Shown here: positions 4,050 to 28,636 of the stretch, piece after piece
Layout: each line of letters starts with the position of its first letter
Position numbering within the stretch: the first letter of the stretch is position 1
Made by a program: the position numbers and the translations under genes
The notes under the pieces: model-generated
What the model was told of the DNA's origin: nothing
Seen by the model: the letters and a program-made list of their open reading frames with translations, nothing else
Database searches by the model: none
Source of the DNA: Escherichia coli
GTDB taxonomy: Bacteria; Pseudomonadota; Gammaproteobacteria; Enterobacterales; Enterobacteriaceae
Direction: 5' to 3' (one strand)
Assembly (NCBI RefSeq): GCF_045037415.1
Contig: NZ_CP173438.1
DNA length: 64,000 bases

Positions 4050-5362
<1,313 letters not shown>

Positions 5363-5403
5363 CCTGTACTCCATATGACAACCGCCCTGACGGGCGGTTG
5401 AAT

Positions 5404-6180
5404 TTATTCTTCAGTTTTTTCGCTTTCTGCTTCAGCGTCGTTTTCCTCTTCCCGGTTTCGCCCTTTACCAACGTAAAAGCGTGAGAAGAAGACACCGATT
5501 TCAAACAGGCAGTACATCGGGATCGCCAACAGCGTTTGCGAGAAGACATCCGGCGGCGTCAGCAACATCCCGACAACGAATGCACCAACCAGCACATACG
5601 GGCGTTTTTTGCGTAAGTCTTCTGGCGAGGTAATCCCCATCCAGCACAGCAGCACAATTGCCACCGGCACTTCAAAGGAGACACCAAACGCCATAAACAG
5701 CGCCATAACGAAGCTTAAATAGCTCGCGATGTCGGTGGATACCTGTACCCCTTCCGGCGCGGTATTGGCAAGGAAGCCAAATGCCAGCGGAAAGACCACA
5801 AAGTAGGCGAACGCCATGCCGATATAAAACAGCAGAGAGCTGGAAACCAGCAGCGGCACCACCAGGCGACGTTCATGCTTATACAGCGCTGGGGCGATAA
5901 ACGCCCACACCTGATAGAGAATCACCGGCGCTGACAGAATCAGCGACACCATAAAGGTCAGCTTGATCGGCGTAAAGAACGGCGAGGCCACGTCGGTGGC
6001 GATCATCGTTGAACCTTGCGGCAACTGCTTGATCAATGGCGCGGATACCAGGTGATAGATGTCATTGGCGAAATAGACCAGACACAGGAATATCACGATC
6101 ACCGAGATAATGCAGTTCAGCAGACGCTTACGCAGCTCAATCAGATGCGTGATAAGCGGTTGAGTATCTTCTACAGACAT
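5404..6180 (-). CDS. tatC: Sec-independent protein translocase TatC
   Basis: 258 aa polytopic membrane protein matching TatC. Confidence 0.95.
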
Positions 6181-6182
6181 GT

Positions 6183-6698
6183 TTACGGTTTATCACTCGA
6201 CGAAGGGGAAGGTGCAGCGGTTTTCGGTTCAGCGTCCGCAGCAGGTTTTACCACCGGCTCTGGCGTGGTTTCTGGCTTCTGTTCCGGCGAACTGGCCTGC
6301 GTTTGTGCAGCAGCAGGCGTTACGCCTTCATGCACAGTTTCATTGTCTTTCACCACCGGGTTATGGATGGTGTGCGCTTCATCGCTCGCCTTTTCAGGAT
6401 CGTTTGCAACGTAGGAACGCTTCATCGACTCCGCAGCCTGGCGTAATTCATCCATCGACGCTTTCAGTTCGGGCGTCAGGTTAGTGAGGCTCGCCTTTTC
6501 AACCTTTTTCAGACTGTCCTGAAACTCCTGGAGTTTTAACTCCTGGGTCAGTTCGTTCTGCACCGTTGTCGCCAGTGAACGCAACGCACGAATCCAGCCC
6601 GCTACCGTTTTTACCGCCACAGGCAGTCGTTGCGGCCCCAGAACGACGAGGCCGATGATGAACACCAATAGCAGTTCGCTAAAACCGATATCAAACAC
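6183..6698 (-). CDS. tatB: Sec-independent protein translocase TatB
   Basis: 171 aa, N-terminal TM helix + amphipathic helix, matches TatB. Confidence 0.95.
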
Positions 6699-6701
6699 AG
6701 A

Positions 6702-6971
6702 TTACACCTGCTCTTTATCGTGGCGCTTCGCGTCTTCTGTTTTAGCCTGTTCCTGATTCGTATCCGCCTGCTTATCGGCGATAGTTTTCGCAGTAAAATC
6801 AGCATCCTGGCTGGTTTTATCCTGCTTTGGTTCATCATCGCTCATTGCTTTTTTAAAGCCTTTGATCGACGCACCAAGATCGGAACCGATGGAGCCGAGC
6901 TTTTTGGTGCCAAAAAGCAGTACAACGATGACGGCAATAATCAATAACTGCCAAATACTGATACCACCCAT
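6702..6971 (-). CDS. tatA: Sec-independent protein translocase TatA
   Basis: Matches TatA from [14 protein letters not shown] (89 aa); ORF-track extension of 14 codons trimmed. Confidence 0.9.
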
Positions 6972-7049
6972 ACATGTTCCTCTGTGGTAGATGATGATTA
7001 AACAAAGCCGCATTATACGTTACACGGCCCGCCTTGAGCGATGAAAAAA

Positions 7050-9292
<2,243 letters not shown>

Positions 9293-10155: not shown

Positions 10156-11583
10156 CTAGCGCGACTGCTGATTATATTCATCATCGCGTTGATAAGCTTC
10201 ATCATTCGGCTGCTCCGGAACCGACCGAAGTCGATACTCTTCATCCTGGCTCACCGCCTGTTCAGCCAAATCCGGATTAATCTCGCGTTTAATTTCTACC
10301 CCTAAACCGCGAAACGCTTCTGCCTGCGCCAGCACATTTCCGCGACCTGAAGAGAGTTTTTTCATTGCCTGGCGATAGTTATCCTGCGCTTTGTCGAGAC
10401 TTTGACCAATCGCGGACATGTCATCGATGAACAAACGCATCTTGTCGTACAGCTTGCTGGCACGATCGGCGATTTGCTGGGCGTTGCGGCTTTGATGCTC
10501 ATAACGCCACAGGTTGGCGATAGTGCGCAGCGCCACCAGCAGCGTAGTCGGGCTAACCAGCATGATATTGTTTTTCAACGCTTCGGTGATCAGCTCCGGC
10601 TGACGGTCAAGCGCCAGTAAAAAAGCGGGTTCAACGGGAATAAACATCAGCACGTAATCCAGAGTTCGCAGCCCCGGCAGCTGTTGATAATCTTTGCGTC
10701 CCAGCAAACGGATATGGTTACGCACCGACGCGATATGTTCCTGTAGCGCGCTTTCACGTGTGTAGTCATCTTCAGCGTTGAAATAACGTTCATAGGCAAC
10801 CAGCGTCATTTTGGCGTCGATCACCACATCTTTGCCCTGCGGCAGCCGCACGATGACATCCGGTTGCATTCGCGAACGAGTGTCGGTTTCGATACTCACT
10901 TGAGTCTGATATTCATACCCTTCACGCAGACCAGACGCCTCCAGTACGCGGGTTAGCACCACTTCGCCCCAGTTGCCCTGGGTTTTATTGTCGCCTTTCA
11001 GCGCACGCGTCAGGTTGATCGCTTCCTGGGCCATTTGCGCGTTGAGTTGCTGGAGATTGCGGATTTCGTGAGTCAGGGTATGACGTTCTTGTGCTTCTTT
11101 ACCGAAACTGTCCTGAACCTGACGGCGAAAACCGTCCAGTTGTTCACGCAACGGCGACAAAAGACTGTTCAGACTCTGGCGATTTTGCTCATCAACCCGA
11201 CGATTACTGTGTTCAAAAATACGGTTGGCAAGGTTTTCAAATTGCTCACTGAGGCGCTGTTCGCTGTTGATCATCTGGCGAATTTTATCGTCAGCGTGTT
11301 GCTGTGCGGCTTCCATCCGCGTGGTCACTTCACGCAGATCGGCCTCCAGCGAGGTGTTAATACTTTGCAGGCTGCGCACTTCGTTATTGAGCAATTCACA
11401 CTCTGCGCGCCAGTGCTCGCTTTGGGTAATTTGTTGTTTTGCCGCGCTTAACTCCGCGACCATCTCTTCACGTTCAGCTAATTGCTCGGCTTTTTGCTGC
11501 GCATGTTGATAACTGGCAAACAGCCAGCCAATTGCCACACCCACCAACGCAATGACTGCGTAAACCATGATTGAGAAATCCAC
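10156..11583 (-). CDS. rmuC: DNA recombination protein RmuC (YigN)
   Basis: 475 aa, N-terminal TM segment + long coiled-coil + RmuC nuclease-like C-terminus. Confidence 0.9.
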   Translation of the reverse strand: MDFSIMVYAVIALVGVAIGWLFASYQHAQQKAEQLAEREEMVAELSAAKQQITQSEHWRAECELLNNEVRSLQSINTSLEADLREVTTRMEAAQQHADDKIRQMINSEQRLSEQFENLANRIFEHSNRRVDEQNRQSLNSLLSPLREQLDGFRRQVQDSFGKEAQERHTLTHEIRNLQQLNAQMAQEAINLTRALKGDNKTQGNWGEVVLTRVLEASGLREGYEYQTQVSIETDTRSRMQPDVIVRLPQGKDVVIDAKMTLVAYERYFNAEDDYTRESALQEHIASVRNHIRLLGRKDYQQLPGLRTLDYVLMFIPVEPAFLLALDRQPELITEALKNNIMLVSPTTLLVALRTIANLWRYEHQSRNAQQIADRASKLYDKMRLFIDDMSAIGQSLDKAQDNYRQAMKKLSSGRGNVLAQAEAFRGLGVEIKREINPDLAEQAVSQDEEYRLRSVPEQPNDEAYQRDDEYNQQSR

Positions 11584-11702
11584 AACGCCTCCTGACGCAA
11601 CAACTTACCCGCACAAAATAGAATTGTGCTGTACAAACGTCCAGTTTGAAAGAAGTTTCCTGCGAGGCGCTACGCAAAACGATCGTTAATTTTCATTATT
11701 TT

Positions 11703-11738
11703 ATCCCATAATATGAGATGAAGTTTATATTGTGGGAT
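11703..11738. promoter_or_regulatory. Imperfect inverted repeat upstream of the IclR-family gene (candidate operator)
   Basis: atcccataatat-N12-atattgtgggat, arms one mismatch from perfect, about 60 bp upstream of the start codon. Confidence 0.3.
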
Positions 11739-11799
11739 ATATCACCTTTTCCCCACGTCATTATGTGGAACACTTCAGCAATATCATCAGGAGAAACGT

Positions 11800-12567
11800 A
11801 TGGCAGAAACCTCTTCAACCACCGCAGGCGCACAAACGTTATTACGTGGACTGGCGGTTCTTAATGCTGTTTATAACGGCTGCCATGACCTAAAAAGTAT
11901 CGGCGAGTTCACCGGCACGACCCGGAGCACAACCCATCGTTTAGTCACCGTTCTGGTGGAACAACGCTACCTGCGCCATGTCCCAACGCAGGGCTACCAA
12001 CTGGGTGCCAAACTGATCGAATTCGGTGCCAGAGCACTGGAAAGCACCTCGCTGTACGAAATTGCCCAGCCCGTTTTGCAACGCCTTGCCCGTTACACCC
12101 TGGACACCGTGCATCTGGGGATCGTTGAAGGCGACGAAGTGCTGTATCTGGAGAAGATCAACAGTCAGCGCGGGCTGGAAATGCGCTCACGCCCAGGCCA
12201 TCGCATGCCACTGGCAATCACCGGCATCGGCAAGGCATTGATCCTCAACCGAACAGAAGAAGAGTGGCGCACGCTGTTTAAGACCTGTGGTGATGAAACA
12301 AAACTGGGCGCATTTATTCAGAACATGCGTCGTTATGCCGCCAGTGGTTTTGCTTTTGATCTGGAAGAGAACGAGCCGACTATCCGTTGCGTTGCAGCGC
12401 CGGTTTACAACGCCCGGGATGAAATTGTGGCGGCTATTTCTGTCGCCAGTACCACCACGTATATGTCGCTGGCGCGTCTGGAAGAACTGGCACCTTACGT
12501 CAAATCCTGTGCAGAAGAGATATCCGCTGAACTGGGCTGGGGTAAGCACGTCCGCAAAGATAAATAA
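11800..12567 (+). CDS. IclR-family transcriptional regulator (KdgR-like)
   Basis: 255 aa; N-terminal wHTH followed by an IclR effector domain; RBS aggag 8 bp upstream. Confidence 0.8.
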   Translation: MAETSSTTAGAQTLLRGLAVLNAVYNGCHDLKSIGEFTGTTRSTTHRLVTVLVEQRYLRHVPTQGYQLGAKLIEFGARALESTSLYEIAQPVLQRLARYTLDTVHLGIVEGDEVLYLEKINSQRGLEMRSRPGHRMPLAITGIGKALILNRTEEEWRTLFKTCGDETKLGAFIQNMRRYAASGFAFDLEENEPTIRCVAAPVYNARDEIVAAISVASTTTYMSLARLEELAPYVKSCAEEISAELGWGKHVRKDK

Positions 12568-12590
12568 ACCATGATTAAAGGAAACGACTA

Positions 12591-13595
12591 ATGCCGGGAG
12601 CACCCTCATTTATTGCCCTGGACTGGGGAACGTCATCGCTTCGGGCATGGCGTTTTGGCGAATCACCAAATCCACAAGAAAAACGTGAATTCCCCTGGGG
12701 GATCATGAAATTACCCTCCCAGGCAGCAACACGTGAGGACGCTTTCCACGATACGTTTTTACGTGTCTGCGGCGACTGGCTGGCACAAACCCCATGCCCG
12801 GTACTGGCTTGCGGCATGCTCGGCAGTGCGCAAGGGTGGCAACCAGCAGCTTATTTACCTTGCCCGGTCACTCTCGAGGGTCTGGCGAAGCAGTTGACGC
12901 CTGTTATCCACCAGCAGCAGACAATGCTGCACATCATTCCTGGCGTGATTAAAGAAGGTGAAATGCCCGAAGTGATGCGTGGCGAAGAGACACAAATCTT
13001 CGGTGCTATCTCGATGGAACCGTCCCTGCAAAATGCGATCCATCAGGGTATGCCAGTGCTGATAGGCTTACCCGGCACACATGCGAAATGGGCAGTAGTT
13101 GAAAACAACACCATTACCGATTTCCGAACCTTTATGACGGGCGAGTTATTTGATGTTTTATCCCGCCATTCGATTCTCGGTGCCACCATGCATCCTGGAG
13201 ATGAACTGCACTGGGATGCCTTCACCCACGGGCTGACAGCAGCACAAGAGCATCATCAGACCGGATTATTATCGACGCTGTTTTCGACCCGTTCGCGCCT
13301 GCTGACCAGTAATCTTACGTCGTCCTCGCAGGGGGATTACCTTTCCGGATTACTGATAGGCCATGAATTATGTGGTCTGGCATCCAGTTTGCTACGTGAT
13401 TTACCCGCCACAACACCGATCGCCTTAATCGGTAGCGCAAATCTGAACAGCCGCTATTCACAAGCATTCAGCCACGTTTTTCCCGACAGACAGATACACG
13501 CCATTCCTAATGCCACTGAACAGGGATTATGGCGAATCGCCCACGCTGCCGGGTTACTGTCCACCAACGCCAGGGAATGTACCCATGCCATTTAA
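12591..13595 (+). CDS. 2-dehydro-3-deoxygalactonokinase-family sugar-acid kinase (DgoK-like)
   Basis: 334 aa; shares DgoK motifs IALDWGTS, MRGEETQ, PGTHAKW, FRTFMTGEL, LSGLLIG. Confidence 0.8.
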   Translation: MPGAPSFIALDWGTSSLRAWRFGESPNPQEKREFPWGIMKLPSQAATREDAFHDTFLRVCGDWLAQTPCPVLACGMLGSAQGWQPAAYLPCPVTLEGLAKQLTPVIHQQQTMLHIIPGVIKEGEMPEVMRGEETQIFGAISMEPSLQNAIHQGMPVLIGLPGTHAKWAVVENNTITDFRTFMTGELFDVLSRHSILGATMHPGDELHWDAFTHGLTAAQEHHQTGLLSTLFSTRSRLLTSNLTSSSQGDYLSGLLIGHELCGLASSLLRDLPATTPIALIGSANLNSRYSQAFSHVFPDRQIHAIPNATEQGLWRIAHAAGLLSTNARECTHAI

Positions 13596-14214
13596 TACGC
13601 TTTTGCAAAAAACCGGGTTAGTCGCCATTTTACGCGGCGTGAAACCGGATGAGATTGTCGCCATCGGTGAAAAACTGTACGCCGCCGGATTCCGCCTGAT
13701 TGAGATTCCTATGAACTCGCCGGAGGCGTTGCAAAGTATCAGTTTACTGCGCGACGCCCTGCCTAAGGACTGCCTGGTCGGAGCCGGAACTGTGCTTTCG
13801 GTAGAGCAGGTGGTTGCGGTTAAAGAGGCTGGGGGCCAGATTATCGTGATGCCGCATTGCGATACTGCGGTGATCCGTCGCGCCCGTGCGCTGGGTATGT
13901 ATTGTGCGCCTGGCGTCGCCACGCCCACCGAAGCCTTTACTGCCATTGAACATGGTGCTAATGCCATCAAGCTGTTCCCGGCTGAACAAATTACGCCAGA
14001 AGTTACCAAAGCCTGGCGTGCGGTTATTCCACAATCCGTTCCGATGTTACCGGTTGGCGGTATCACACCGGAAACCATGGCGCGTTATCTGAGCCACGGC
14101 GCAAACGGCTTTGGCCTCGGTTCTGCGCTATATCACCCCGGCATGACGCCAGAGCAAGTCTATGAAAATGCAGTACTGTTTATGAACGCATGGAACAATT
14201 TAAATAGCAACTAA
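13585..14214 (+). CDS. 2-dehydro-3-deoxy-6-phosphogalactonate/KDPG-type aldolase (DgoA/Eda family)
   Basis: Start chosen at MPFNTLLQ, overlapping the kinase stop by 11 bp; motifs LVAILRG, GAGTVL, KLFPA, GGITPE typical of class I KDPG/KDPGal aldolases. Confidence 0.75.
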   Translation: MPFNTLLQKTGLVAILRGVKPDEIVAIGEKLYAAGFRLIEIPMNSPEALQSISLLRDALPKDCLVGAGTVLSVEQVVAVKEAGGQIIVMPHCDTAVIRRARALGMYCAPGVATPTEAFTAIEHGANAIKLFPAEQITPEVTKAWRAVIPQSVPMLPVGGITPETMARYLSHGANGFGLGSALYHPGMTPEQVYENAVLFMNAWNNLNSN

Positions 14215-14238
14215 CTGATAAATAAGGATATAAAAGCA

Positions 14239-15213
14239 ATGATAAAACATCTTACCTTACCGAAAAAAATGGCTGCAATGGTACTTCTTGCAGGCGCTGC
14301 CCTCAGCATTGCGCCTGTACAGGCTGCCTCCTGGCCAACCAAACAGATCGAGTTAGTCGTTCCCTACGCTGCCGGAGGCGGTACGGATCTGGTTGCCCGT
14401 GCCTTTGCTGATGCCGCCAAAAACCATTTACCCGTCAGCATCGGGGTTATCAATAAACCTGGCGGAGGCGGTGCTATCGGCCTGAGTGAAATCGCCGCTG
14501 CCCGCCCTGGCGGTTACAAAATTGGTTTAGGCACGGTTGAACTGACCACCCTTCCCAGCCTCGGAATGGTGCGTTTTAAAACCAGCGACTTTAAACCCAT
14601 TGCCCGTCTGAATGCGGATCCGGCTGCTATCACAGTCCGTGCCGATGCGCCGTGGAATAGCTATGAAGAATTTATGACTTACGCCAAAGCGAATCCCGGA
14701 AAAGTACGCATTGGTAACTCAGGCACCGGAGCTATCTGGCATCTGGCGGCAGCTGCACTGGAAGACAAAACGGGCGCAAAGTTTTCTCATGTCCCGTATG
14801 ACGGCGCAGCCCCTGCCATTACAGGCCTGTTAGGCGGGCACATTGAAGCGGTTTCCGTAAGCCCAGGAGAAGTTATCAACCATGTGAAAGGCGGCAAGCT
14901 GAAGACACTGGTAGTGATGGCGGATGAGCGAATGAAAACCATGCCTGACGTCCCGACGTTAAAAGAGAAAGGCGTTGATCTCTCCATCGGCACCTGGCGC
15001 GGCCTGATTGTGTCGCAAAAAACGCCGCAGGATGTGGTGGATGTTCTGGCAAAGGCAGCAAAAGAGACGGCTGAAGAGCCTGCATTCCAGGATGCACTAC
15101 AAAAGTTGAATCTCAACTATGCATGGCTTGACGCTGCCAGCTTCCAGACCCAAATCAGCGAACAGGAAAAGTACTTTGACGAGTTGCTGACTCGCCTGGG
15201 CCTGAAAAAATAA
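14239..15213 (+). CDS. Tripartite tricarboxylate transporter substrate-binding protein (TctC/Bug family)
   Basis: 324 aa with signal peptide (AAL-SIAPVQA) and Bug-family length and composition. Confidence 0.75.
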   Translation: MIKHLTLPKKMAAMVLLAGAALSIAPVQAASWPTKQIELVVPYAAGGGTDLVARAFADAAKNHLPVSIGVINKPGGGGAIGLSEIAAARPGGYKIGLGTVELTTLPSLGMVRFKTSDFKPIARLNADPAAITVRADAPWNSYEEFMTYAKANPGKVRIGNSGTGAIWHLAAAALEDKTGAKFSHVPYDGAAPAITGLLGGHIEAVSVSPGEVINHVKGGKLKTLVVMADERMKTMPDVPTLKEKGVDLSIGTWRGLIVSQKTPQDVVDVLAKAAKETAEEPAFQDALQKLNLNYAWLDAASFQTQISEQEKYFDELLTRLGLKK

Positions 15214-15226
15214 ACCTGAGGTACGG

Positions 15227-15736
15227 TTGATGAACACAAAACAGTCTGTTGCTCAACTCGCCGTACCGCACCGCAAGCGCCTTTCATCAACGATGGTGGT
15301 GGCGCTGTTACTTTGTGTGGTTGCTGGCGCGGTGATGATTAATGCCGCTGATTTTCCAGCAACTGCCATTGAAACGGATCCCGGTGCAAGTGCCTTCCCT
15401 ACCTTCTATGCCTGTGCCCTGATTGTGCTCGCTGTCTTGCTGGTGATACGCGATCTTTTGCAGGCAAAACCAGCCTCTTGCGCCAACGCACAGGAAAAAC
15501 CGGCATTCAGGAAAACGGCAACAGGAATTGCGGCAACCGCGTTTTATATTGTGGCGATGAGCTACTGCGGTTATCTCATTACTACTCCTGTTTTCCTCAT
15601 CGTCATTATGACGTTGATGGGCTACAGGCGATGGGTACTCACACCGGGTATTGCGCTGCTGTTAACGGCAATCCTCTGGTTGCTGTTTGTCGAAGCGTTA
15701 CAGGTGCCATTGCCTGTCGGCACATTTTTCGAATAA
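15227..15736 (+). CDS. Tripartite tricarboxylate transporter small membrane subunit (TctB-like)
   Basis: 169 aa hydrophobic 4-TM protein immediately between the TctC-like and TctA-like genes. Confidence 0.6.
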   Translation: MMNTKQSVAQLAVPHRKRLSSTMVVALLLCVVAGAVMINAADFPATAIETDPGASAFPTFYACALIVLAVLLVIRDLLQAKPASCANAQEKPAFRKTATGIAATAFYIVAMSYCGYLITTPVFLIVIMTLMGYRRWVLTPGIALLLTAILWLLFVEALQVPLPVGTFFE

Positions 15737-15748
15737 CAGGGGCCAGCA

Positions 15749-17239
15749 ATGTTTGAAAGTGAACTTTTAACTCAGGGTTTTTCGACATTACTCAATAATC
15801 CTCAGGCGCTGCTGTTTGCCACTTTTGGGGTGATGCTGGGTATTGTGATTGGCGCTCTGCCTGGTCTGACAGCGACCATGGGTGTGGCGATTTTGCTGCC
15901 TTTCACCTACGGCATGGAGCCTGTTTCTGGCTTGTTGATGATTTGCGGCGTCTTTTTTGGCGGCGTCTATGGCGGTTCTATCACCGCAATTTTGCTCAAA
16001 ATTCCCGGTACGCCTGCCGCCGCAGCCACCGCCATTGACGGATATGAGCTGACGAAGCAGGGAAAAGCAGGGCTGGCATTGAGTGCCGCCACGTTCTCTT
16101 CCTTTAGTGGCGGAACGCTCAGCATTATCGTGCTGATGTTTCTCTCTCCGGTACTTGCCAGTTGGGCGCTGAAATTTAGTGCCTCGGAGTCCTTCGCCCT
16201 GGCAACCTTCGGACTGAGCATTATTGCCAGTATTTCCGGTGAGTCGCTGATTAAGGGGCTGATTGCCGGGGTTGGCGGATTGCTGATCGCAACGATAGGC
16301 CTTGATCCAATGGGCGGTTTTCCACGGTTTACAGGTGGATTTGTGGAGCTGATGAATGTGCCATTTATCCCGGTGATGATTGGTTTATTTGCTGCTTCAG
16401 AAGCATTCCGCTCTATGGAGCAAAACCAGCAAATTCGTCAGGGGGCGAAGGTGGCTATCGGCAGTCTGTTACTGCCCTGGCAAACACTACGCCGCATCGC
16501 ATTAACCATTTTGCGCTCATCAGGATTAGGGGTTTTTATCGGCATGATCCCCGGTGCGGGGGCGGATATTGCAGCTTTTGTTGCCTATAACGAAACTCGT
16601 CGTTTCAGTAAGACACCAGAAAACTTTGGTAAGGGTGAAATTAAAGCTGTGGCCTCCTGTGAGGCAGGCGCGAATGGCTGCACCGGTGGCGCATTGTTAC
16701 CTATGCTGACGCTGGGGATCCCTGGCGATGCGGTAACCGCCATCATGCTGGGCGCGTTAACGTTACAGGGAATGCAACCAGGCCCGCTGATGTTTACCGA
16801 CCACGGCGATATGGTTTATACACTGTTTGTCGGCATGATCTTCTGTTACTTCATGCTACTAGTTCTTGGACTGCTCTCTTTGAAAGTCATCGGTAATGTG
16901 GTGAAAATTCCCGGCAATATTCTCACACCGATGATCCTCGCACTTTGTGTGGTCGGGACTTATGCGTTGAACAATAGCCTTTTTGATGTTGGCATTATGC
17001 TGATTGCAGGCGTGGTGGGCTATTTCATGCAGAAAGGAGGATATCCGGCATCACCCGTAGTGCTGGCATTGATTATGGGGCCAATGGCGGAAAGTAATTT
17101 TCGCCGTGCGCTGTCGCTTTCTGGTGGGTCACTCGACTTTCTGTATACCCGACCGATCACTCTGGCATTGCTGACTCTGGCAGCCTTTACGCTACTGACG
17201 CCAATAATCCGCAAAATAATGCGTTTACGGCGTCAATAA
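15749..17239 (+). CDS. Tripartite tricarboxylate transporter large permease (TctA family)
   Basis: 496 aa polytopic membrane protein with TctA-like glycine-rich repeats. Confidence 0.8.
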   Translation: MFESELLTQGFSTLLNNPQALLFATFGVMLGIVIGALPGLTATMGVAILLPFTYGMEPVSGLLMICGVFFGGVYGGSITAILLKIPGTPAAAATAIDGYELTKQGKAGLALSAATFSSFSGGTLSIIVLMFLSPVLASWALKFSASESFALATFGLSIIASISGESLIKGLIAGVGGLLIATIGLDPMGGFPRFTGGFVELMNVPFIPVMIGLFAASEAFRSMEQNQQIRQGAKVAIGSLLLPWQTLRRIALTILRSSGLGVFIGMIPGAGADIAAFVAYNETRRFSKTPENFGKGEIKAVASCEAGANGCTGGALLPMLTLGIPGDAVTAIMLGALTLQGMQPGPLMFTDHGDMVYTLFVGMIFCYFMLLVLGLLSLKVIGNVVKIPGNILTPMILALCVVGTYALNNSLFDVGIMLIAGVVGYFMQKGGYPASPVVLALIMGPMAESNFRRALSLSGGSLDFLYTRPITLALLTLAAFTLLTPIIRKIMRLRRQ

Positions 17240-17246
17240 CTGATAT

Positions 17247-17276
17247 CGCTCCCCGAAGTTGGGGAGCGTTTTTTTA
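17247..17276 (+). terminator. Rho-independent terminator after the TctA-like gene (overlaps the udp stop)
   Basis: cgctcccc-gaagtt-ggggagcg stem followed by 8 T. Confidence 0.55.
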
Positions 17277-18038
17277 TTTCAGCAGACGACGCGCCGCTTC
17301 CACCACGATTTTCACCGCATGGCTTTCGGTTTGTTTCATCGTCTCAGCATTCGGGATCTCTTGCTGGGTGCGGTTAACGATAACCCCCGCTACCATACCG
17401 GCACGCAGGCCCTGACTTGCACACATGGTCAGCAGGGTTGCAGATTCCATTTCATAGTTCATTACGCCCATCGCCTGCCACTCTTCCATAGAACCTTTAA
17501 AGTGACGAACTACGCGACCAGAGTAAGTATCGTAACGTTCCTGACCTGGGTAGAAGGTATCAGAAGAAGCTGTCACGCCAACGTGAGTCGTCGCGCCAAT
17601 GGATTTCGCAGCTTCAACCAGCGCAGTCGTACATTCGAAATCAGCGACAGCCGGGAATTCCAGCGGTGCGAAGTGCAGGCTCGCGCCATCCAGACGAACA
17701 GACGCCGTGGTAACCAGGACATCACCCACATTAATATGCGGCTGAATAGCGCCCGTTGTACCGATACGCAGGAAGGTGCGAATGCCCAGCTGTGCCAGCT
17801 CTTCAACAGCAATAGAGGTAGACGGGCCGCCGATACCGGTAGAGCAGACGATAACAGGTTTACCATCCAGCTCTGCACGCCAGGTGGTGAATTCGCGGTG
17901 AGATGCCAGCTTAACCGGCTTATCCATCAGCGCGGCGATCTTTTCCACACGATCCGGGTCGCCAGGGACGATGGCAAGCGTAGCCCCTTGTAAATCGTTT
18001 TTAGTGAGGCCGAGATGAAAAACATCAGACTTGGACAT
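17274..18038 (-). CDS. udp: Uridine phosphorylase
   Basis: Matches Udp from [16 protein letters not shown] (253 aa). Confidence 0.95.
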
Positions 18039-18129
18039 ATACAACTCCTCTGTGAATCGGTTTAGTCAGAAGAAGCAAAAAGACACTTTACCGAAGGGTT
18101 TAACATTTTTTCGTGATACTCATCACCAT

Positions 18130-19365: not shown

Positions 19366-20034
19366 ATGACGCAATCCATTTTTCAGGCTCAACCCTTTGA
19401 ATTACCTTTTGATCCGCGCACAACTGCACTGGTCATGATCGACATGCAGCGTGACTTTGTCGAAGCCGGGGGCTTCGGTGAGGCACTGGGCAATGATGTT
19501 TCACGGGTACGCACGGCTATCGCACCATGTACAGAGGTGCTGGCAGCCGCACGTCAAAAAGGAATTATGGTTATTCATACTCGTGAAGGCCATCGTGCAG
19601 ACTTAAGCGACTGCCCGCCAGCCAAACTGACGCGCGGCGGAAAAACCTTTATTGGTGAACCAGGACCGATGGGACGCATTCTGGTCAGAGGTGAAGCAGG
19701 TCATGACATCATTCCTGAACTGTACCCGGTGGCAGGCGAACCGGTGATTGATAAGCCTGGCAAAGGCGCGTTTTATCAAACCGACTTACATCTGATTTTG
19801 CAAAACCACGGTATCAAGACGCTGATAGTTTGTGGTGTAACAACCGAAGTTTGCGTAACCACCACCGTGCGCGAAGCAAATGATCGTGGCTATGAATGCA
19901 TTATCCCGGAAGATTGTGTCGGCTCCTATTTCCCGGAATTCCAGAAATACGCCCTCGAGATGATCAAAGCACAAGGTGCCATTTTCGGTTGGGTTACTGA
20001 TTCCAAAGCCATTATTGCAGGTCTGGAAGGCTAA
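19366..20034 (+). CDS. Isochorismatase-family cysteine hydrolase (RutB / N-carbamoylsarcosine amidase / biuret hydrolase-like amidase)
   Basis: 222 aa; family triad context D (LVMIDMQRDF), K (DKPGKGAF), C (LIVCGVTTEVCV); RBS aggag upstream. Confidence 0.75.
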   Translation: MTQSIFQAQPFELPFDPRTTALVMIDMQRDFVEAGGFGEALGNDVSRVRTAIAPCTEVLAAARQKGIMVIHTREGHRADLSDCPPAKLTRGGKTFIGEPGPMGRILVRGEAGHDIIPELYPVAGEPVIDKPGKGAFYQTDLHLILQNHGIKTLIVCGVTTEVCVTTTVREANDRGYECIIPEDCVGSYFPEFQKYALEMIKAQGAIFGWVTDSKAIIAGLEG

Positions 20035-20039
20035 CGCCG

Positions 20040-20900
20040 ATGGTACAGGTTACGCTTTGCGCATCGTCGTTGGGATATCTTTTCCCGCAGGATGAAACGC
20101 AAGATTTACGTCTACATAGCGCTTTTAAACATGCGGTAAATCTGTATTCAGACGCGGGAACATTCATCACTCTGTTGTGTGCGCAAACGTATCTGAATCT
20201 CCCTGATGCTGCCAGAGTCTGGCTACCTGAATGTTGGGACTGGCGAAGAGAGATTGCCCATTCAGATCCCATTCAGTTAACCCCAGGCTTGCTGCGGACA
20301 CCTCGATTTTGTGTGGCGCTCGATAACGCAACGCTCTGGCAGTCGCCATTTGTGGGGGGAATGCTGACACTTGAGGCATTCCCTTTGGTTTTCCAGCACT
20401 ACCCAACGATGGCATCGCAACGGCTTTTATTTTGTCTGGAGCATAACGTTCAAAGCACATTGCACCTGCCGGATAGTCTCACGCACCAGGGATTAGCGAT
20501 TATGGAGCATCCAGATGCGCTGGAACGCCAGGTGCCACAACTGATCGGCTTTGGTAAAGGCTTAACGCCCGATGGAGATGACTATTTGTTGGGCTATCTG
20601 GCAGCGCTCTGGTTATGGCAACTCCCTGCACCACTTGCCGATCATCAATACCGGTTGCAGCAGGCAATTGATCAACATGCGCACAACACCACGGATATCA
20701 GTCGTCATTATCTGGAGCGTGCGCTTCAGGGACATTTTTCAGAACCGATTTGCCAGTTACTCGCACAACTGGTTGGGAGCGCATCGGCAATGACAATCGC
20801 ATCCTGTGCAGAACAGGTCATGCAATTTGGCGCAACGTCAGGAGTAGATTGCCTTGCAGGAATGCTGCATGGCTTTCGAACCCTGAACACCATGAATTGA
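20040..20900 (+). CDS. DUF2877-like protein (YahE/YlbF-like; putative carbamoyltransferase accessory subunit)
   Basis: 286 aa ORF starting 6 bp after the amidase stop. Assignment rests mainly on length and its position directly upstream of the FdrA-like gene, as in the yahEFG and fdrA-ylbEF clusters. Confidence 0.45.
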   Translation: MVQVTLCASSLGYLFPQDETQDLRLHSAFKHAVNLYSDAGTFITLLCAQTYLNLPDAARVWLPECWDWRREIAHSDPIQLTPGLLRTPRFCVALDNATLWQSPFVGGMLTLEAFPLVFQHYPTMASQRLLFCLEHNVQSTLHLPDSLTHQGLAIMEHPDALERQVPQLIGFGKGLTPDGDDYLLGYLAALWLWQLPAPLADHQYRLQQAIDQHAHNTTDISRHYLERALQGHFSEPICQLLAQLVGSASAMTIASCAEQVMQFGATSGVDCLAGMLHGFRTLNTMN

Positions 20901-20994
20901 TTTCAACCTTTTCTCCCGTAGCCCGTTTATGGGGCTACACGGGGATGCTTTGCCCGAATTTTGCTATCGGGCGGAATGAAACAGGCGTAACAGC

Positions 20995-22554
20995 ATGAAA
21001 GTTAAATATAAAGTTTTCAGTAATCTTTATCAGGACTCAGTTTCTCTGATGCAGATTTCCGCGCAAATCAGCAAGTTGCCCGGTATTCAACAGGCCTCGG
21101 TCGTCATGGGAACGCCCAATAATCTCGAACAATTGCGCGATGCGGGTCTGGGTAACGAAATCAACGCCAGTCCCAATGATTTAGTGATTGCAGTCATGGG
21201 TGAAGAAGATATTTGCAATGAAGCACTGATACTGGCCCAGCAACGTCTGACCAGCAAACCCGATGATGAAACGGATAGTGGCATTAAAACACCGGAAAAG
21301 GTCAGCCTGGAAATGGCACTGGAAGCCGAACCCGAAGCCAACCTGGCACTCATTTCTGTACCGGGAGACTACGCCGCCGCCGAAGCAATTAAAGCGTTAA
21401 ACCTCGGAATGAACGTGATGATGTTCAGCGATAACGTCAGTATCGTGCAGGAAAAATCCATCAAAACGCTTGCCCGAGAACGTCAGCGCATCGTAATGGG
21501 ACCTGACTGTGGAACCGCCATTGTTAACGGCATTCCGTTAGGCTTCGCTAATGTGGTGAAACGCGGAGCAATTGGTGTTATTGGCGCGTCAGGCACCGGG
21601 CTACAGGAAGTGACTTGCCGAATCGACCAGCTCGGAGCGGGTATTTCTCAGGCGTTGGGAACAGGCGGACATGATCTCAGTAAAGAGATTGGTGGAATAT
21701 CGATGCTCTTCGCTTTAGATGCGCTGGCGCAAGACGATGAAACTCGCGTAATTGTGCTGATTTCAAAACCGCCTTCACCGATCGTTGCCCGGACTATTCT
21801 GGAGCGCGCCGAGGCTTGTGGAAAACCCGTGGTGGTGAATTTCCTCGGGGCGAATCCGCATGATCTGGCACGTCCCAATATCACTGCCGCCACCACACTT
21901 GCCAGCGCCGCCGACATCGCTGTGGCGTTACTGAATGCTCAGCCACTTCCGGCTGTCGAAACCGATGTACCCTGCGACGATCTCACAATGTTACAAAACG
22001 CCTGCCAGCGCCTGCCAGCCCATCGCCAGGCGATACGCGGTGTTTTCGCCGGAGGAACCTTCTGCTACGAAGCGCAACTTATCTGCCAACAAAAGGGATT
22101 CAGCGCAGCTTCCAATACGCCAGTTGCGGGTAATCGTGCTCTGGCAAATATCTGGCAAAGCGAAGATCACACGTTGATCGATATGGGCGACGATGATTTC
22201 ACCCGTGGCAAACCGCATCCAATGATCGACCCGACTCTGCGCAATCAACGTCTGCTCAACGAACTCAACGACTCACACACTGCCGTCGTGTTATTCGACC
22301 TGGTACTTGGTTATGGCGCTTCCACGACGCCTGCCAGCGAATTACTGGACCAACTTTCACACATCGACATGAATAACGCTCCGTTGCTGATTGCGCACGT
22401 TTGCGGAACGGAAGCTGATCCGCAAATACGCAGTCAGCAGATAAGCGCACTACAAAATGCAGGGGTCATCATCGCCAGCAGCAATGCACAGGCGGCGCTA
22501 TGGGCCAGCACCGTTGCACAGACTCAGTTGCAGAAAAAGGGGCTAAACGCATGA
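20995..22554 (+). CDS. FdrA-family protein (succinyl-CoA-synthetase-like fold)
   Basis: 519 aa; motifs QDSVSLM, NLALISVPGDYAA, NVMMFSDNV, MGPDCGT, GVIGASGTG, KPHPMIDPTLRNQ shared with E. coli FdrA/YahF. Confidence 0.7.
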   Translation: MKVKYKVFSNLYQDSVSLMQISAQISKLPGIQQASVVMGTPNNLEQLRDAGLGNEINASPNDLVIAVMGEEDICNEALILAQQRLTSKPDDETDSGIKTPEKVSLEMALEAEPEANLALISVPGDYAAAEAIKALNLGMNVMMFSDNVSIVQEKSIKTLARERQRIVMGPDCGTAIVNGIPLGFANVVKRGAIGVIGASGTGLQEVTCRIDQLGAGISQALGTGGHDLSKEIGGISMLFALDALAQDDETRVIVLISKPPSPIVARTILERAEACGKPVVVNFLGANPHDLARPNITAATTLASAADIAVALLNAQPLPAVETDVPCDDLTMLQNACQRLPAHRQAIRGVFAGGTFCYEAQLICQQKGFSAASNTPVAGNRALANIWQSEDHTLIDMGDDDFTRGKPHPMIDPTLRNQRLLNELNDSHTAVVLFDLVLGYGASTTPASELLDQLSHIDMNNAPLLIAHVCGTEADPQIRSQQISALQNAGVIIASSNAQAALWASTVAQTQLQKKGLNA

Positions 22555-23975
22555 ATACCTTATTTAATCAGCCTTTGAAGGTTGTGAACGCGGGACTACA
22601 CAGTTTTGCTGACAATATTCAACATGCCGGGGGAAGCGCAATTGCACTCAACTGGCAGCCACCAGCACAAGGCGATATTGACGCTGGATTGGATCTGGCA
22701 TCGTTGCTACGTCATCCCCTGGTAGAAAATGCCAACCAAATCGCCATGGCACGTTATCTCGAAGCACAGCCCGTGCTGGTGGATGTCATGCTTGCTAAAG
22801 AGGCCATTCCAGCAATGGCTGAACAAAAACGTATTTTGCACTCTGGCCCGCCGATTGCCTGGGAAGAGATGTGTGGTCCGGTAAAAGGGGCGATTATTGG
22901 TGCCATGCTGTACGAAGGTTGGGCCACCAGCCAGCAAGACGCTGAAAACCAGATAAACGCAGGCGAAATCGACCTTGCCCCTTGTCATCATTATCACGCG
23001 GTTGGCCCAATGGCAGGCATCATCAGCCCGTCGATGCCGTTATGGGTGGTAGAAAACAAAACCAACGGCCACCGTACTTTTAGCAATTTCAATGAAGGTC
23101 TGGGTAAGGTTCTCCGTTTTGGCGCCAATAACGATGAAGTTCTCAATCGTCTGGCCTGGATGCGCGATGAACTGACGCCGGCAATGAAAGCAGCAATCGC
23201 ACAACACGGCGAGCTGGAACTCAAGCCATTAATGGCGCAGGCGCTGCATATGGGGGATGAAGTTCATAACCGCAATGCTGCCGCTACCGGTTTGCTGATT
23301 AAGCGCCTGCTCCCGGCATTGCTGGCCTGCTCTCTTCCACAGGAACATATCCAGCGCGTCGTGGCATTTATCACCGGTAACGATCACTTCTTCCTCAATC
23401 TGTCGATGGCCGCCTGTAAAGCAATGATGGATGCCGCCGCCAATGTACCGTTCAGTTCAATGGTTACGGTGATGGCGCGTAACGGGGTGAATTTTGGTAT
23501 TCGGATTTCCGGTACTGGCGATCGCTGGTTCCAGGCTCCTGCCAATGCCGTTGAAGGTCTGTTCTTCCCCGGATTTGGCGTTGACGACGCTGCTGCTGAC
23601 CTGGGTGATAGCGCAATTACTGAAACCGCAGGTGTGGGTGGCTTCGCGATGGCGTCGTCTCCGGCGATCGTCAAATTTGTGGGAGGCACCCCTGCCGATG
23701 CCACCAATAACAGCCGTCGGATGCAAGCCATCACCCTCGGCGGTAACCCCGCATTTACACTTCCAGCCCTCAATTTTGCCCCCACCGCAGCAGGGATTGA
23801 TGCGCGTAAAGTGACCGATCGCGGCATTTTACCGGTCATCAATACGGGTATCGCCCACAAACAAGCGGGGGTCGGGCAAATTGGTGCCGGGATCACCACT
23901 GCGCCGATGGCCTGTTTTGTCGCCGCTGTACGTGCACTGGCGGAGATCGTCGCAAAGGAGAACCATCATGGTTAA
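22551..23975 (+). CDS. DUF1116-family protein (YlbE/YahG-like)
   Basis: Start ATG overlaps the FdrA-like stop as ATGA (translational coupling); ~474 aa, the size of YlbE/YahG. Confidence 0.6.
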   Translation: MNTLFNQPLKVVNAGLHSFADNIQHAGGSAIALNWQPPAQGDIDAGLDLASLLRHPLVENANQIAMARYLEAQPVLVDVMLAKEAIPAMAEQKRILHSGPPIAWEEMCGPVKGAIIGAMLYEGWATSQQDAENQINAGEIDLAPCHHYHAVGPMAGIISPSMPLWVVENKTNGHRTFSNFNEGLGKVLRFGANNDEVLNRLAWMRDELTPAMKAAIAQHGELELKPLMAQALHMGDEVHNRNAAATGLLIKRLLPALLACSLPQEHIQRVVAFITGNDHFFLNLSMAACKAMMDAAANVPFSSMVTVMARNGVNFGIRISGTGDRWFQAPANAVEGLFFPGFGVDDAAADLGDSAITETAGVGGFAMASSPAIVKFVGGTPADATNNSRRMQAITLGGNPAFTLPALNFAPTAAGIDARKVTDRGILPVINTGIAHKQAGVGQIGAGITTAPMACFVAAVRALAEIVAKENHHG

Positions 23976-24924
23976 GCCACTGGCTGTCGTCGCGGTTGGC
24001 GGCAATGCGCTCATTCAGGACGAGCAACGCAATAGTATTCCCGATCAATATGTTGCAGTGATGGAAAGCGTGCAGCATATCGTTGATATGGTTGAAGCCG
24101 GATGGGACCTGGTGCTAACCCACGGTAATGGCCCGCAGGTGGGCTTTATTCTGCGCCGCTCTGAACTCGCCAGTAACGAAGTTTCTCCGGTTCCACTTGA
24201 TTACGCCGTGGGTGATACACAAGGTGCAATTGGCTACATGTTCCAGAAAGCGCTGCATAACGAACTCGCTCGCCGTGGCATAAACAAACCGGTAATTGCC
24301 CTGGTGACACAAACGCGAGTCAGCCCACATGACGATGCTTTCGCCAGCCCCAGTAAACCGATTGGCGCGTTTCTCGATGAAGCAACGGCCCAACAACGCC
24401 AACAACAACTCGGCTGGACGCTGATGGAGGACGCCGGGCGTGGTTGGCGGCGTACAGTTCCCTCTCCTGCACCACTGGAAATTATTGAGCACGACACCAT
24501 CGCTCACCTGGTGCGCCAGGGATATCTGGTTATTGCCTGCGGCGGCGGCGGTATTCCGGTGGTGCGAGACGGGCAACAACTGAAAGGTGTAGAAGCCGTG
24601 ATCGATAAAGATCTGGCCTCCGCGCTGCTCGCCAGTCAGTTAGGCGCAGATCTGCTGGTGATCCCCACCGGTGTAGAAAAAGTGGCGATTAACTTTGGTA
24701 CACCACAACAACAGTGGCTCGACGCTATCAGCGTTGCCGAAGCGCAAACGCTGTTGCGGGAAGGTCAGTTTGGTGTCGGCAGTATGCAACCCAAAGTGGA
24801 AGCCATTGTTGATTTCATCAATGCCAGCCAGCAACAAGGCAAACAGGCCAGCGGCCTGATTACTTCACCGCAAACCATAAAAGCAGCCCTGGCGCATCAG
24901 AGCGGTACATGGATAACCCTTTAA
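23968..24924 (+). CDS. Carbamate kinase
   Basis: Start at MVKPLAVVAVGGNAL with RBS aaggag; carbamate-kinase motifs THGNGPQVG, CGGGGIPV, VIDKD, GSMQPK; overlaps the upstream stop by 8 bp. Confidence 0.8.
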   Translation: MVKPLAVVAVGGNALIQDEQRNSIPDQYVAVMESVQHIVDMVEAGWDLVLTHGNGPQVGFILRRSELASNEVSPVPLDYAVGDTQGAIGYMFQKALHNELARRGINKPVIALVTQTRVSPHDDAFASPSKPIGAFLDEATAQQRQQQLGWTLMEDAGRGWRRTVPSPAPLEIIEHDTIAHLVRQGYLVIACGGGGIPVVRDGQQLKGVEAVIDKDLASALLASQLGADLLVIPTGVEKVAINFGTPQQQWLDAISVAEAQTLLREGQFGVGSMQPKVEAIVDFINASQQQGKQASGLITSPQTIKAALAHQSGTWITL

Positions 24925-24940
24925 TTCTCTGGAGAACACA

Positions 24941-25330
24941 ATGACTACAACGCTTTTAGCCGTTAACGGAACGCTGATGCGCGGCCTGGAACTCAACCCA
25001 AATATGCAAAAAGCGGGCGGTATTTTTGTCCGTGAAGACCGAACTGACGCCCATTACCGGTTGTGGAGTATTAATGATCGCCATCCGGGAATGATTCGCG
25101 TGAATGAAGGAGGAACACACGTCGACGTAGAAATTTGGCAATTACCGCTGGCCAGTTTTGCCGCTCTGTTAATGAGCGAACCCGCTGGGCTGGCAATTGG
25201 CAAAATCAAACTTGCCGATGGTAGCGAAGTGCTGGGCGTACTGGCAGAAAACTGGCTGACCGAAGGCCAACGGGAAATTACAGAACTGGGTAGCTGGCGT
25301 AAATACACCGGGCATTTTCATACTGTGTAA
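24941..25330 (+). CDS. Gamma-glutamylcyclotransferase-like (AIG2/GGCT fold) small protein
   Basis: 129 aa, N-terminal LLAVNGTLMRG resembles the GGCT-fold YGSL-type motif; function inferred only weakly. Confidence 0.4.
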   Translation: MTTTLLAVNGTLMRGLELNPNMQKAGGIFVREDRTDAHYRLWSINDRHPGMIRVNEGGTHVDVEIWQLPLASFAALLMSEPAGLAIGKIKLADGSEVLGVLAENWLTEGQREITELGSWRKYTGHFHTV

Positions 25331-25355
25331 CGCGCATTTATAAAGGGAACATACT

Positions 25356-26579: not shown

Positions 26580-26656
26580 TTCCTGGGTATACTCAGGCAA
26601 TGATTACGGCTGAATCTGGAGAGATTCAGCCACTTTACCACTGACCAGGGAGCCTT

Positions 26657-27562
26657 ATGTTCATCTCAGACGAAACGCTTCGTGTTATTCATCTGGTCGC
26701 CAGACACCAGAGCATTACCACCGCAGCCGAGCAGTTAAATAAAGTCCCTTCCGCCATCAGTTACACCATCAAGAAAGCGGAAGAGAGCCTGGGCGTTGAA
26801 CTGTTCATTCGTAAGGGACGCTATATTGAATTATCGCCAGCGGGAAGTTACTTCATCGAACATAGCAAAACTATTCTTGGCGACCTGGAAGCATTAAAGC
26901 GCAACACAGTGCTGATTCACGATGGTATTGAGCGTGAACTGACAATTGCGGTAAACAATATTATTCCTGGTGATTTGCTGGTGGCATTTATTCGAGATTT
27001 TGAACGGCAATTCACATCAACAACACTGACGGTAGATCTTGAGGTATACAACGGCTGCTGGGATGCGCTGTACAGTAAGCGTGCTGATCTGGTCTACGGT
27101 GCTCCTCATGCAGTACCAAGCAGTGAAGGCATCATTAGCGAACCGGTCGGACAAATGGAATGGGATTTTGTCGTCAGCCCACTCCACCCACTGGCAGCGA
27201 AGCGGCATCCATTAGAAAACAGTGAATTGCGTCATTATCCAGCGGTTTGTATCCGCGATACCTCCGTTAACTTCCCCCCGATGCAAGCCTGGTTGTTGGA
27301 AGGACAAAAACCCATTTTTGTTCCTGACTTCGCTACGGCAATCGCCTTAATAGAACAAAACGTCGGTATTGGTTATATTCCACATCATCTGGCATTACCG
27401 TTATTGAACAGCGGTAAATTGCTTAAAAAGCCAATGCGCGAACATAAACACGCCACCAAGTTATTTCTTGCCGCTCGTTCCGATGGTATGGGCAAAGCCT
27501 GTCAGTGGTGCATAGAATATTTAAGAAACCAGCAATTAATGACACGATTTGTATTTAATTGA
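26657..27562 (+). CDS. LysR-family transcriptional regulator
   Basis: 301 aa; N-terminal HTH (TAAEQLNKVPSAISYTIKKAEESLGVELF) plus LysR substrate-binding domain. Confidence 0.8.
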   Translation: MFISDETLRVIHLVARHQSITTAAEQLNKVPSAISYTIKKAEESLGVELFIRKGRYIELSPAGSYFIEHSKTILGDLEALKRNTVLIHDGIERELTIAVNNIIPGDLLVAFIRDFERQFTSTTLTVDLEVYNGCWDALYSKRADLVYGAPHAVPSSEGIISEPVGQMEWDFVVSPLHPLAAKRHPLENSELRHYPAVCIRDTSVNFPPMQAWLLEGQKPIFVPDFATAIALIEQNVGIGYIPHHLALPLLNSGKLLKKPMREHKHATKLFLAARSDGMGKACQWCIEYLRNQQLMTRFVFN

Positions 27563-27689
27563 CAATACAATGATAAAAATATAAGTCTTGCTTTAATTAG
27601 AGCGCCCGTTTAAATTATTTTTGTGCAGTTGACGTAATTCATGAAAATTAACCGGTCTGTTAATCATTACGTTCACTGCACACCTTCAT

Positions 27690-28629: not shown

Positions 28630-28636
28630 TGCAGGT

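Follow-up and report, generated by a model that had tools for sequence, protein, structure and literature searches.

A six-gene block between rmuC and udp

We analysed a 64,000-nucleotide stretch of Escherichia coli DNA (contig NZ_CP173438.1 of RefSeq assembly GCF_045037415.1; the whole stretch is referred to as the window) and focused on a block of six genes located between rmuC and udp. The block encoded an IclR-family regulator, a kinase and an aldolase for 2-keto-3-deoxy sugar acids, and the TctC, TctB and TctA proteins of a tripartite tricarboxylate transporter (TTT). The original prediction, made from the sequence without database searches, had described a DgoK-like kinase, a DgoA-like aldolase whose gene overlaps that of the kinase by 11 bp, an IclR regulator and a full TctCBA set, and all of these were confirmed by the open reading frames (ORFs), by Pfam and NCBIfam matches and by the Prokaryotic Genome Annotation Pipeline (PGAP). 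The same six genes were found in the RefSeq PGAP annotation of a 100%-identical genome. Our analysis established which genes the block contains (Table 1), the families and the catalytic and stereo-determining residues of its proteins, the layout of the operon, and where and in which gene neighbourhoods it occurs. The block is a genuine accessory operon that is widespread and has yet to be characterised.

Table 1. Coordinates of the block, its flanks and the accessory genes of related loci (positions are those of the window, except in the last row, where they are those of the retrieved locus)
Feature	Position	Strand	Basis and remarks
rmuC, left flank	10156-11583	-	NCBIfam NF007686, 1064 bits; PGAP; divergent from operon
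Left junction and regulatory region	11680-11799	+	Sequence comparison with K-12
IclR-family regulator, operon gene 1	11800-12567	+	ORF list; PGAP
DGOK-family 2-keto-3-deoxy-hexonate kinase, 334 aa	12591-13595	+	PF05035
Class I aldolase, 2-keto-3-deoxy-6-phosphogalactonate (DgoA) type, 209 aa	13585-14214	+	NF006600
TctC/Bug-type periplasmic solute-binding protein, 324 aa	14239-15213	+	PF03401, 3.5e-55
TctB small membrane subunit, 168 aa	15230-15736	+	PGAP; PF07331 on the E. fergusonii orthologue (96% identical)
TctA large permease subunit, 496 aa	15749-17239	+	PGAP; PF01970 on the E. fergusonii orthologue (100% identical)
Terminator hairpin and right junction	17247-17279	+	Terminator scan; sequence comparison
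udp, right flank	17274-18044	-	NCBIfam NF008383, 530 bits; convergent with tctA
Short-chain dehydrogenase/reductase and SMP-30 additions	L006 6512-7288, 13184-14098; L008, L011-L017, L019, L022-L024, L026, L041		Non-enterobacterial relatives (numbered loci)

Apart from the overlap of the kinase and aldolase genes, the intergenic gaps within the block were 12-24 nt. A terminator scan found a sole strong terminator, consisting of the hairpin CGCTCCCCGAAGTTGGGGAGCG at 17247-17268 followed by a T-run, just 3' of tctA. Because of the short gaps, the one overlap and the single strong terminator, the six genes, with the regulator first, look like one operon. No DgoD-like dehydratase and no DgoT-like or other permease of the major facilitator superfamily (MFS) was present among the ORFs, PGAP genes or BLAST matches of the block, in agreement with the prediction.

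The prediction's statement that rmuC and udp are adjacent in K-12 was also correct, since the two genes are 140 bp apart in J53, a K-12 derivative. Similarity between the window and K-12 stopped at position 11679 and restarted at 17280, such that 5,600 bp (11680-17279) stood here versus 47 bp in K-12. K-12's own udp terminator falls within those 47 bp and is replaced here by the terminator of the block, which is shared by tctA and udp and overlaps the udp stop codon. As the udp stop codon is the site of the right junction, the C-terminus of Udp reads ...RRLLK* in genomes bearing the block versus ...RRLL* in K-12, a difference of one extra lysine (17274-17282).

A possible operator in the form of an inverted repeat, TATCCCATAATAT-N12-ATATTGTGGGATA, was located upstream of the regulator gene at 11702-11739, and a sequence resembling the binding site of the cAMP receptor protein (CRP), TGTGG-N6-TCACC, at 11731-11746. 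When six enterobacterial loci were aligned, the pattern ATCCCATATAT(N)GGGAT...TATATTATGGGAT followed by TGTGn-N6-TCACC was conserved 5' of the regulator gene, and we infer from this conservation a predicted IclR operator and a predicted CRP site. The best NCBIfam matches of the regulator were BhcR (143 bits) and KdgR (129.7 bits against a cut-off of 275), both below cut-off, and its orthologues carried the Pfam HTH_IclR and IclR_C domains. A pattern search for the canonical KdgR box gave no match near the operon; two matches elsewhere were at chance level.

Distribution and age of the locus

The complete block, with six intact ORFs and mostly at least 99% identity, was found in 1452 of 5426 complete E. 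coli genomes (27%), and the other E. coli genomes with a match contained the flanks only. Carriers included O25b:H4-ST131 (100% identity), O18 and avian pathogenic (APEC) O2:K1 strains, strain Seattle 1946 and BL21(DE3), in which the block is annotated as ECD_RS19455-19480. The full identity to ST131 strains marks the window as ST131-like. The cassette occupied the same rmuC-udp site in E. fergusonii, Buttiauxella warmboldiae and a K. indica-like genome. The Phytobacter massiliensis cassette lay beside udp, with rmuC absent between ubiE and the cassette (7302-7590 of the retrieved locus). The view that the combination of genes is an unusual pairing in Enterobacteriaceae therefore did not stand, given its presence in more than a quarter of complete E. 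coli genomes, in BL21(DE3) and in several other genera.

Between genera, TctA was 86-91% and TctC 79-88% identical, a divergence similar to that of ubiB, rmuC and ysgA. The kinase (48-59%), aldolase (59-67%), regulator (64-72%) and TctB (52-65%) evolved faster. The GC content of the block (0.47-0.56) resembled that of the flanks. No tRNA, Rfam family or flanking direct repeat was found at the block, and PGAP annotated no integrase, insertion sequence (IS) or other mobility gene within it. A horizontally acquired mobile island was considered as the origin of the block and rejected, in view of the lack of mobility marks or a GC shift and the synteny of the cassette in other genera. The original prediction had spoken of an insertion between rmuC and udp; with the same site occupied in other genera, flank-like divergence and no mobility marks, it is K-12 that looks deleted. 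The shared site and the missing mobility marks thus argued for an ancestral block with a deletion in K-12, and the locus is probably old in Enterobacteriaceae and was lost from K-12 and most E. coli lineages, as judged from these comparisons of sequence.

Two damaged copies were encountered. E. coli HS-02 contained an unannotated remnant of about 1.3 kb, 81% identical to the 5' end of the block, beside a truncated udp pseudogene (4889-6300 of the retrieved locus), and strain KA0011 contained IS1 within tctA.

Enzymes, binding protein and related cassettes

The kinase matched PF05035 (DGOK) over the full length of the model (i-Evalue 7.4e-89, model 1-281 of 281) and was 35% identical to K-12 DgoK over 315 residues (E 2e-45). 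Both proteins had the DWG(S/T) motif at the N-terminus, with ALDWGTSSLRAW of the kinase aligning with AIDWGSTNLRAW of DgoK. The aldolase scored 319.9 bits on NF006600, the model of 2-keto-3-deoxy-6-phosphogalactonate (KDPGal) aldolase, and thereby passed the cut-off of 207, and 135.7 bits on the Eda model TIGR01182, below the cut-off of 156. It was 46% identical to K-12 DgoA. The divergence from K-12 that the original prediction had left to be quantified is thus given by these two identities, and neither enzyme turned out to belong to an unrelated family.

In an alignment with DgoA, the aldolase retained the Schiff-base Lys126, the proton-relay Glu37 and Arg14. The position occupied by Val154 or Thr161, and strand beta1, which reads Pro-Val in aldolases for KDPG (2-keto-3-deoxy-6-phosphogluconate), experimentally bias stereoselectivity without fully fixing it (PMC4915726). 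The aldolase of the block had the KDPGal-type residue at both stereo-determining sites, namely Val154 (PVGG) and a beta1 strand of LVAIL (Ala11-Ile12). Across the loci we collected, all aldolases paired with a DGOK kinase were of the Val154 type. Thr at that site was found in five aldolases accompanied by a confirmed or inferred PfkB kinase, and at one locus with no identified kinase alongside.

The closest relatives outside the cassette family were enzymes of De Ley-Doudoroff clusters in Acidovorax and Burkholderia, clusters for galactose or galactonate whose kinases were 47-48% and aldolases 59-60% identical to those of the block. In quick neighbour-joining trees, the kinase and the aldolase each clustered with these enzymes, which were nearer to the pair than K-12 DgoK and DgoA are. 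The Burkholderia cluster begins IclR-DGOK-aldolase, like the block. The Burkholderia relatives adjoined a sugar ATP-binding cassette (ABC) system, short-chain dehydrogenases/reductases (SDRs) and an aldose epimerase, and the Acidovorax relatives a DgoD-type dehydratase of the MR_MLE family. Unlike the block, these clusters possess a mutarotase together with dehydrogenases and ABC transporters for sugars, and the one in Acidovorax has the dehydratase as well; because of these transporters, dehydrogenases and mutarotase, they start from a neutral sugar and not from an imported acid. The DGOK family and the tree-mates from galactonate and galactose clusters point to a kinase that is probably of the type acting on 2-keto-3-deoxy-D-galactonate (KDGal).

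TctC, TctB and TctA were all present and adjacent, as is required of a three-component TTT. The N-terminus of TctC, MIKHLTLPKKMAAMVLLAGAALSIAPVQA|AS, ending ...APVQA, reads as a Sec signal peptide, judged from the sequence by reading. The closest solved relative of TctC was 4X9T from Polaromonas sp. JS666 (E 6e-99, full mature length), followed by 25HK, the TTT-C protein of Vibrio sp. C42 (E 1e-63), which binds unsaturated alginate oligosaccharides (PMC13390454). The nearest Bug structure, BugD, was far more distant (E 8e-48). Seven of the 11 proposed ligand-contact residues of TTT-C were identical in E. coli TctC, including its proposed specificity residues Gly24, Gly183 and Thr225, which correspond to Gly48, Gly210 and Thr252. 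The second carboxylate-binding loop, GNSGTGAIWH in E. coli TctC, was quite different in TTT-C. The characterised substrates of TTT systems are mostly di- and tricarboxylates (PMC5812351), and sugar-acid systems are known or predicted for galactarate/glucarate in Halomonas (PMC5812351) and for alginate oligosaccharides in Vibrio (PMC13390454). For TctCBA of the block, the gene context argues for a sugar acid as the likely substrate rather than a tricarboxylate.

Relatives of the locus were collected by way of TctC, which was chosen as the guide because the binding protein should set the substrate. One genome per species was scanned, contigs were looked up, and the loci obtained were annotated with NCBIfam and through BLAST comparison with a reference set. 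TctC orthologues adjoined a keto-deoxy-hexonate kinase and aldolase in over 25 of these loci, which came from Proteobacteria and Firmicutes. The arrangement IclR-DGOK-aldolase-TctCBA occurred in about 20 diverse loci of Alpha-, Beta- and Gammaproteobacteria (TctC at least 57% identical), and the carriers included Rhodoferax, Azospirillum, Skermanella, an Acetobacteraceae bacterium, Mangrovicoccus, Brenneria, K. oxytoca, Photobacterium pectinilyticum and Spirabiliibacterium. A regulator, TTT, kinase and aldolase with no dehydratase were also found in Phytobacter, Brenneria, K. oxytoca, Pseudoroseomonas and others. In Firmicutes (Brevibacillus, a Psychrobacillus metagenome-assembled genome (MAG), Paenisporosarcina and Geomicrobium), IclR and TctCBA were accompanied by a PfkB kinase of the type acting on KDG (2-keto-3-deoxy-D-gluconate) and an Eda-type aldolase; the Brevibacillus binding protein was 67% identical to E. 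coli TctC. In Paenibacillus and a Bacillota MAG, KdgT directly followed the TctC orthologue. BLAST found no DgoD-like dehydratase in any of the more than 25 cassette loci, and in five Pfam-annotated loci no dehydratase of any kind lay within the cluster. Nine of the cassettes contained an additional SMP-30/regucalcin (gluconolactonase-type) protein. This accessory and the accessory SDR described below were both missing from the Enterobacteriaceae cassettes.

The K. oxytoca cassette was located at a different chromosomal site. Upstream of it was a divergent pair encoding a second DGOK protein, a very distant paralogue at 26% identity, and an alcohol dehydrogenase of the Fe-dependent type (5079-7258 of the retrieved locus), and a second IclR gene lay downstream.

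Proposed function and its alternatives

From the gene content, the enzyme families and the comparative data we infer which ligand is taken up, in which direction the flux runs and how the operon is regulated. On balance, the sequence evidence modestly favours the view that the block is a catabolic operon complete in itself, induced by its substrate, a free 2-keto-3-deoxy sugar acid with six carbons. Periplasmic TctC would capture the acid and hand it over to the TctBA secondary transporter, the DGOK-family kinase would phosphorylate it at C6, and the class I aldolase would split the product into pyruvate and D-glyceraldehyde-3-phosphate. The IclR protein would act at the conserved upstream operator to control the operon, probably together with cAMP-CRP. 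A dehydratase would not be needed, because the substrate would enter already dehydrated. Direct uptake of a 2-keto-3-deoxy-hexonate, as the original prediction had proposed, fits the comparative data, since the cassette recurs across phyla with a kinase and an aldolase and without a DgoD-like dehydratase.

Possible ligands are KDGal, KDG and a uronate-derived precursor. The enzymes of the block point to KDGal, as judged from their family, stereo-determining residues and distance trees. [quoted passage not shown] For E. coli the simplest reading is direct uptake of a keto-deoxy acid, with KDGal favoured by the enzymes.

Several observations weigh against direct uptake of a keto-deoxy acid, and of KDGal in particular. 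Thirteen of the about 20 proteobacterial cassettes contained an additional SDR like the Sphingomonas DEH reductases A1-R and A1-R' (E 1e-103 to 1e-106; about two-thirds identical by eye), and the product of A1-R and A1-R' is KDG and not KDGal, a misfit with a KDGal-type aldolase. The Azospirillum cassette was adjoined by KduI, KduD and KdgT, and KduI was found inside one Firmicutes cassette. The host already encodes DgoK and DgoA, so the enzymes of the block look redundant. To our knowledge, neither gut nor urine is an established natural supply of free KDGal. The closest solved relative of TctC, 4X9T, is an apo crystal structure for which PMC5812351 lists no known ligand. No literature on this E. 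coli locus was found in a search that left most subscription journals outside, so that earlier work may exist; a UTI89-type tctA appears in one RNA-seq table, as a strain-specific gene with mild down-regulation.

The combination of a DEH-reductase-like SDR, and often an SMP-30-like protein, with a KDPGal-type aldolase in the relatives fits no described pathway. It may be that the Dgo-like kinase and aldolase take KDG and KDPG as substrates; alternatively, the accessory enzymes may act in an undescribed way. The SDR was also considered as a sugar dehydrogenase of the De Ley-Doudoroff type, and this was rejected because the Burkholderia SDRs were only 29% identical and A1-R/A1-R' far closer.

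These accessory genes form the basis of the strongest alternative, in which the imported compound is derived from uronates. Bacterial degraders of alginate, pectin or glycosaminoglycans would release a monouronate with 4,5-unsaturation, or its open form DEH or 4-deoxy-L-threo-5-hexosulose uronate (DKI), its conversion to KDG would in E. coli fall to core KduI/KduD or to another reductase, and the kinase and aldolase of the block would act on KDG and KDPG despite their Dgo-like ancestry. The SDR of the extended cassettes matched A1-R/A1-R' over 256 of 258 residues (E 7e-106), and the Azospirillum and Firmicutes loci with KduI, KduD or KdgT agree with such a route, as do the Firmicutes orthologues, whose partners are an Eda-type aldolase and a KDG-type kinase of the PfkB family. 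The 25HK protein binds unsaturated alginate oligosaccharides, and its three specificity residues are conserved in E. coli TctC. The Photobacterium pectinilyticum cassette was followed by an SDR near the gluconate 5-dehydrogenase/KduD models and by a PRK09273-family protein, a pair that we presume to resemble streptococcal DhuD/DhuI. However, no reductase or isomerase was present in the E. coli cassette or in any syntenic enterobacterial cassette, no canonical KdgR box lay near the operon, the aldolase had both KDPGal-type stereo determinants, and the kinase and aldolase grouped with De Ley-Doudoroff enzymes. By our own stereochemical derivation, reduction of DEH yields KDG and reduction of DKI yields L-KDGal, and neither natural reaction yields D-KDGal; a uronate route to D-KDGal was therefore rejected on paper. 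We consider uptake of a uronate-derived compound rather unlikely for the E. coli operon.

In a second alternative, the TTT would be a high-affinity importer of D-galactonate or a related aldonate, and core DgoD would dehydrate the substrate in trans. The block would then be a second entry to the lower De Ley-Doudoroff pathway with its own copies of the last two enzymes. Of 5426 E. coli genomes, 5020 had a dgoD gene, as did the one identical to the window, the Burkholderia galactose cluster likewise reads IclR-DGOK-aldolase with no dehydratase in the 17-kb locus retrieved, and the SMP-30/gluconolactonase-type protein of nine relatives would suit a lactone-to-aldonate step. This importer appeared decidedly improbable, since a DgoD-like dehydratase was not found in any of the more than 25 cassette loci from two phyla, including the Firmicutes versions with a KDG-type kinase and Eda. 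It is also unparsimonious: intracellular galactonate would de-repress dgoRKADT anyway, and the kinase and aldolase of the block would therefore be pointless. As a separate observation, about 400 of the 5426 complete E. coli genomes gave no megablast match to K-12 dgoD.

That the TTT carries an unrelated di- or tricarboxylate and its adjacency to the kinase and aldolase is meaningless, or that the operon is a decaying relic without function in E. coli, is highly implausible: most characterised TTT substrates are di- and tricarboxylates (PMC5812351), damaged copies exist in KA0011 (IS1 in tctA) and HS-02 (the 81%-identical remnant) and about 73% of E. coli genomes are without the block, but 1452 genomes retain every one of the six ORFs undamaged, most of them with identities of 99% or higher, TctA and TctC are conserved between genera as well as the housekeeping flanks, and the linkage of binding protein, kinase and aldolase is kept in Alpha-, Beta- and Gammaproteobacteria and in Firmicutes even with swapped enzyme families, which is hard to explain without a shared substrate.

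The operon was further compared with known systems. Like the block, dgoRKADT combines a DGOK kinase with a KDPGal-type class I aldolase, has overlapping kinase and aldolase genes and yields pyruvate and D-glyceraldehyde-3-phosphate. Unlike the block, with its IclR regulator and binding-protein-dependent TTT, dgoRKADT has the dehydratase DgoD, the MFS permease DgoT and the GntR-type regulator DgoR, and its kinase and aldolase are only 35% and 46% identical to those described here. Since DgoD, DgoT and DgoR are all missing from the block, it is not of the dgo operon family. The two systems coexist in one genome, with a complete dgoRKADT about 160 kb away in the genome identical to the window.

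In function, the block would by analogy most resemble kdgT-kdgK-eda of K-12 under KdgR. The KdgR regulon combines direct uptake of a dehydrated 2-keto-3-deoxy-hexonate with phosphorylation and aldol cleavage under an IclR-family regulator. In contrast to the block, its genes are scattered, its transporter KdgT has a single component, KdgK is a PfkB kinase and Eda is a 4S (Thr161) aldolase. Membership in the regulon did not hold for the block, whose regulator scored 129.7 bits against a cut-off of 275, which lacks a KdgR box, and which encodes a DGOK kinase and a Val-type aldolase. Salmonella TctCBA and Bordetella BctCBA are regulated by a two-component system. They share with the block the three components and the order tctC-tctB-tctA; they carry citrate (PMC5812351), whereas in the block an IclR regulator and sugar-acid enzymes are predicted to be co-transcribed with the transporter. 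The TTT of Vibrio sp. C42 serves sugar-acid catabolism, as would that of the block, but its locus also contains lyases, KdgF, DehR, KdgK and Eda (PMC13390454), and the block has no lyase or reductase.

Because K-12, the metabolic reference strain, is without the operon, it is missing from K-12-based pathway charts, yet it is carried by about 27% of complete E. coli genomes, including pandemic ST131, other extraintestinal lineages and BL21(DE3). If direct uptake of a keto-deoxy sugar acid is correct, the operon adds a binding-protein-dependent, and so presumably high-affinity, entry for such acids, matters for how E. coli lineages differ in niche and cross-feed with organisms that degrade polysaccharides, and gives a ligand class to the widespread clade of TTT binding proteins represented by 4X9T. 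The practical stakes are modest, as the kinase and aldolase chemistry is textbook and both activities are already encoded by core genes. A bolder proposal, which we regard as quite doubtful, is that the cassette is the first physiologically relevant TTT of E. coli, a high-affinity scavenger of free KDGal, KDG or 4-deoxy-5-keto-uronate precursors, which could come from polysaccharide-degrading gut bacteria or from formation in the host; that it would give lineages such as ST131, ST95, ST73 and E. coli B a nutrient niche closed to K-12-like strains; and that the wider family, with its SDR, SMP-30-like protein and KDGal-type pair, is an undescribed dehydratase-free route into the lower De Ley-Doudoroff pathway.

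A second accessory block was observed nearby, at about 19366-32792, where roughly 13.4 kb in two parts lay between ysgA and metE; the two genes adjoin each other in K-12/J53. The first part encoded a cysteine hydrolase, an AllH-like protein, FdrA, YlbE, a carbamate kinase, an allophanate-hydrolase-related protein, a cytosine permease and a LysR regulator, and the second part an RpiR regulator, a transketolase, a PtsG-like IIBC component and HxlB. BL21(DE3) carried the first part only.

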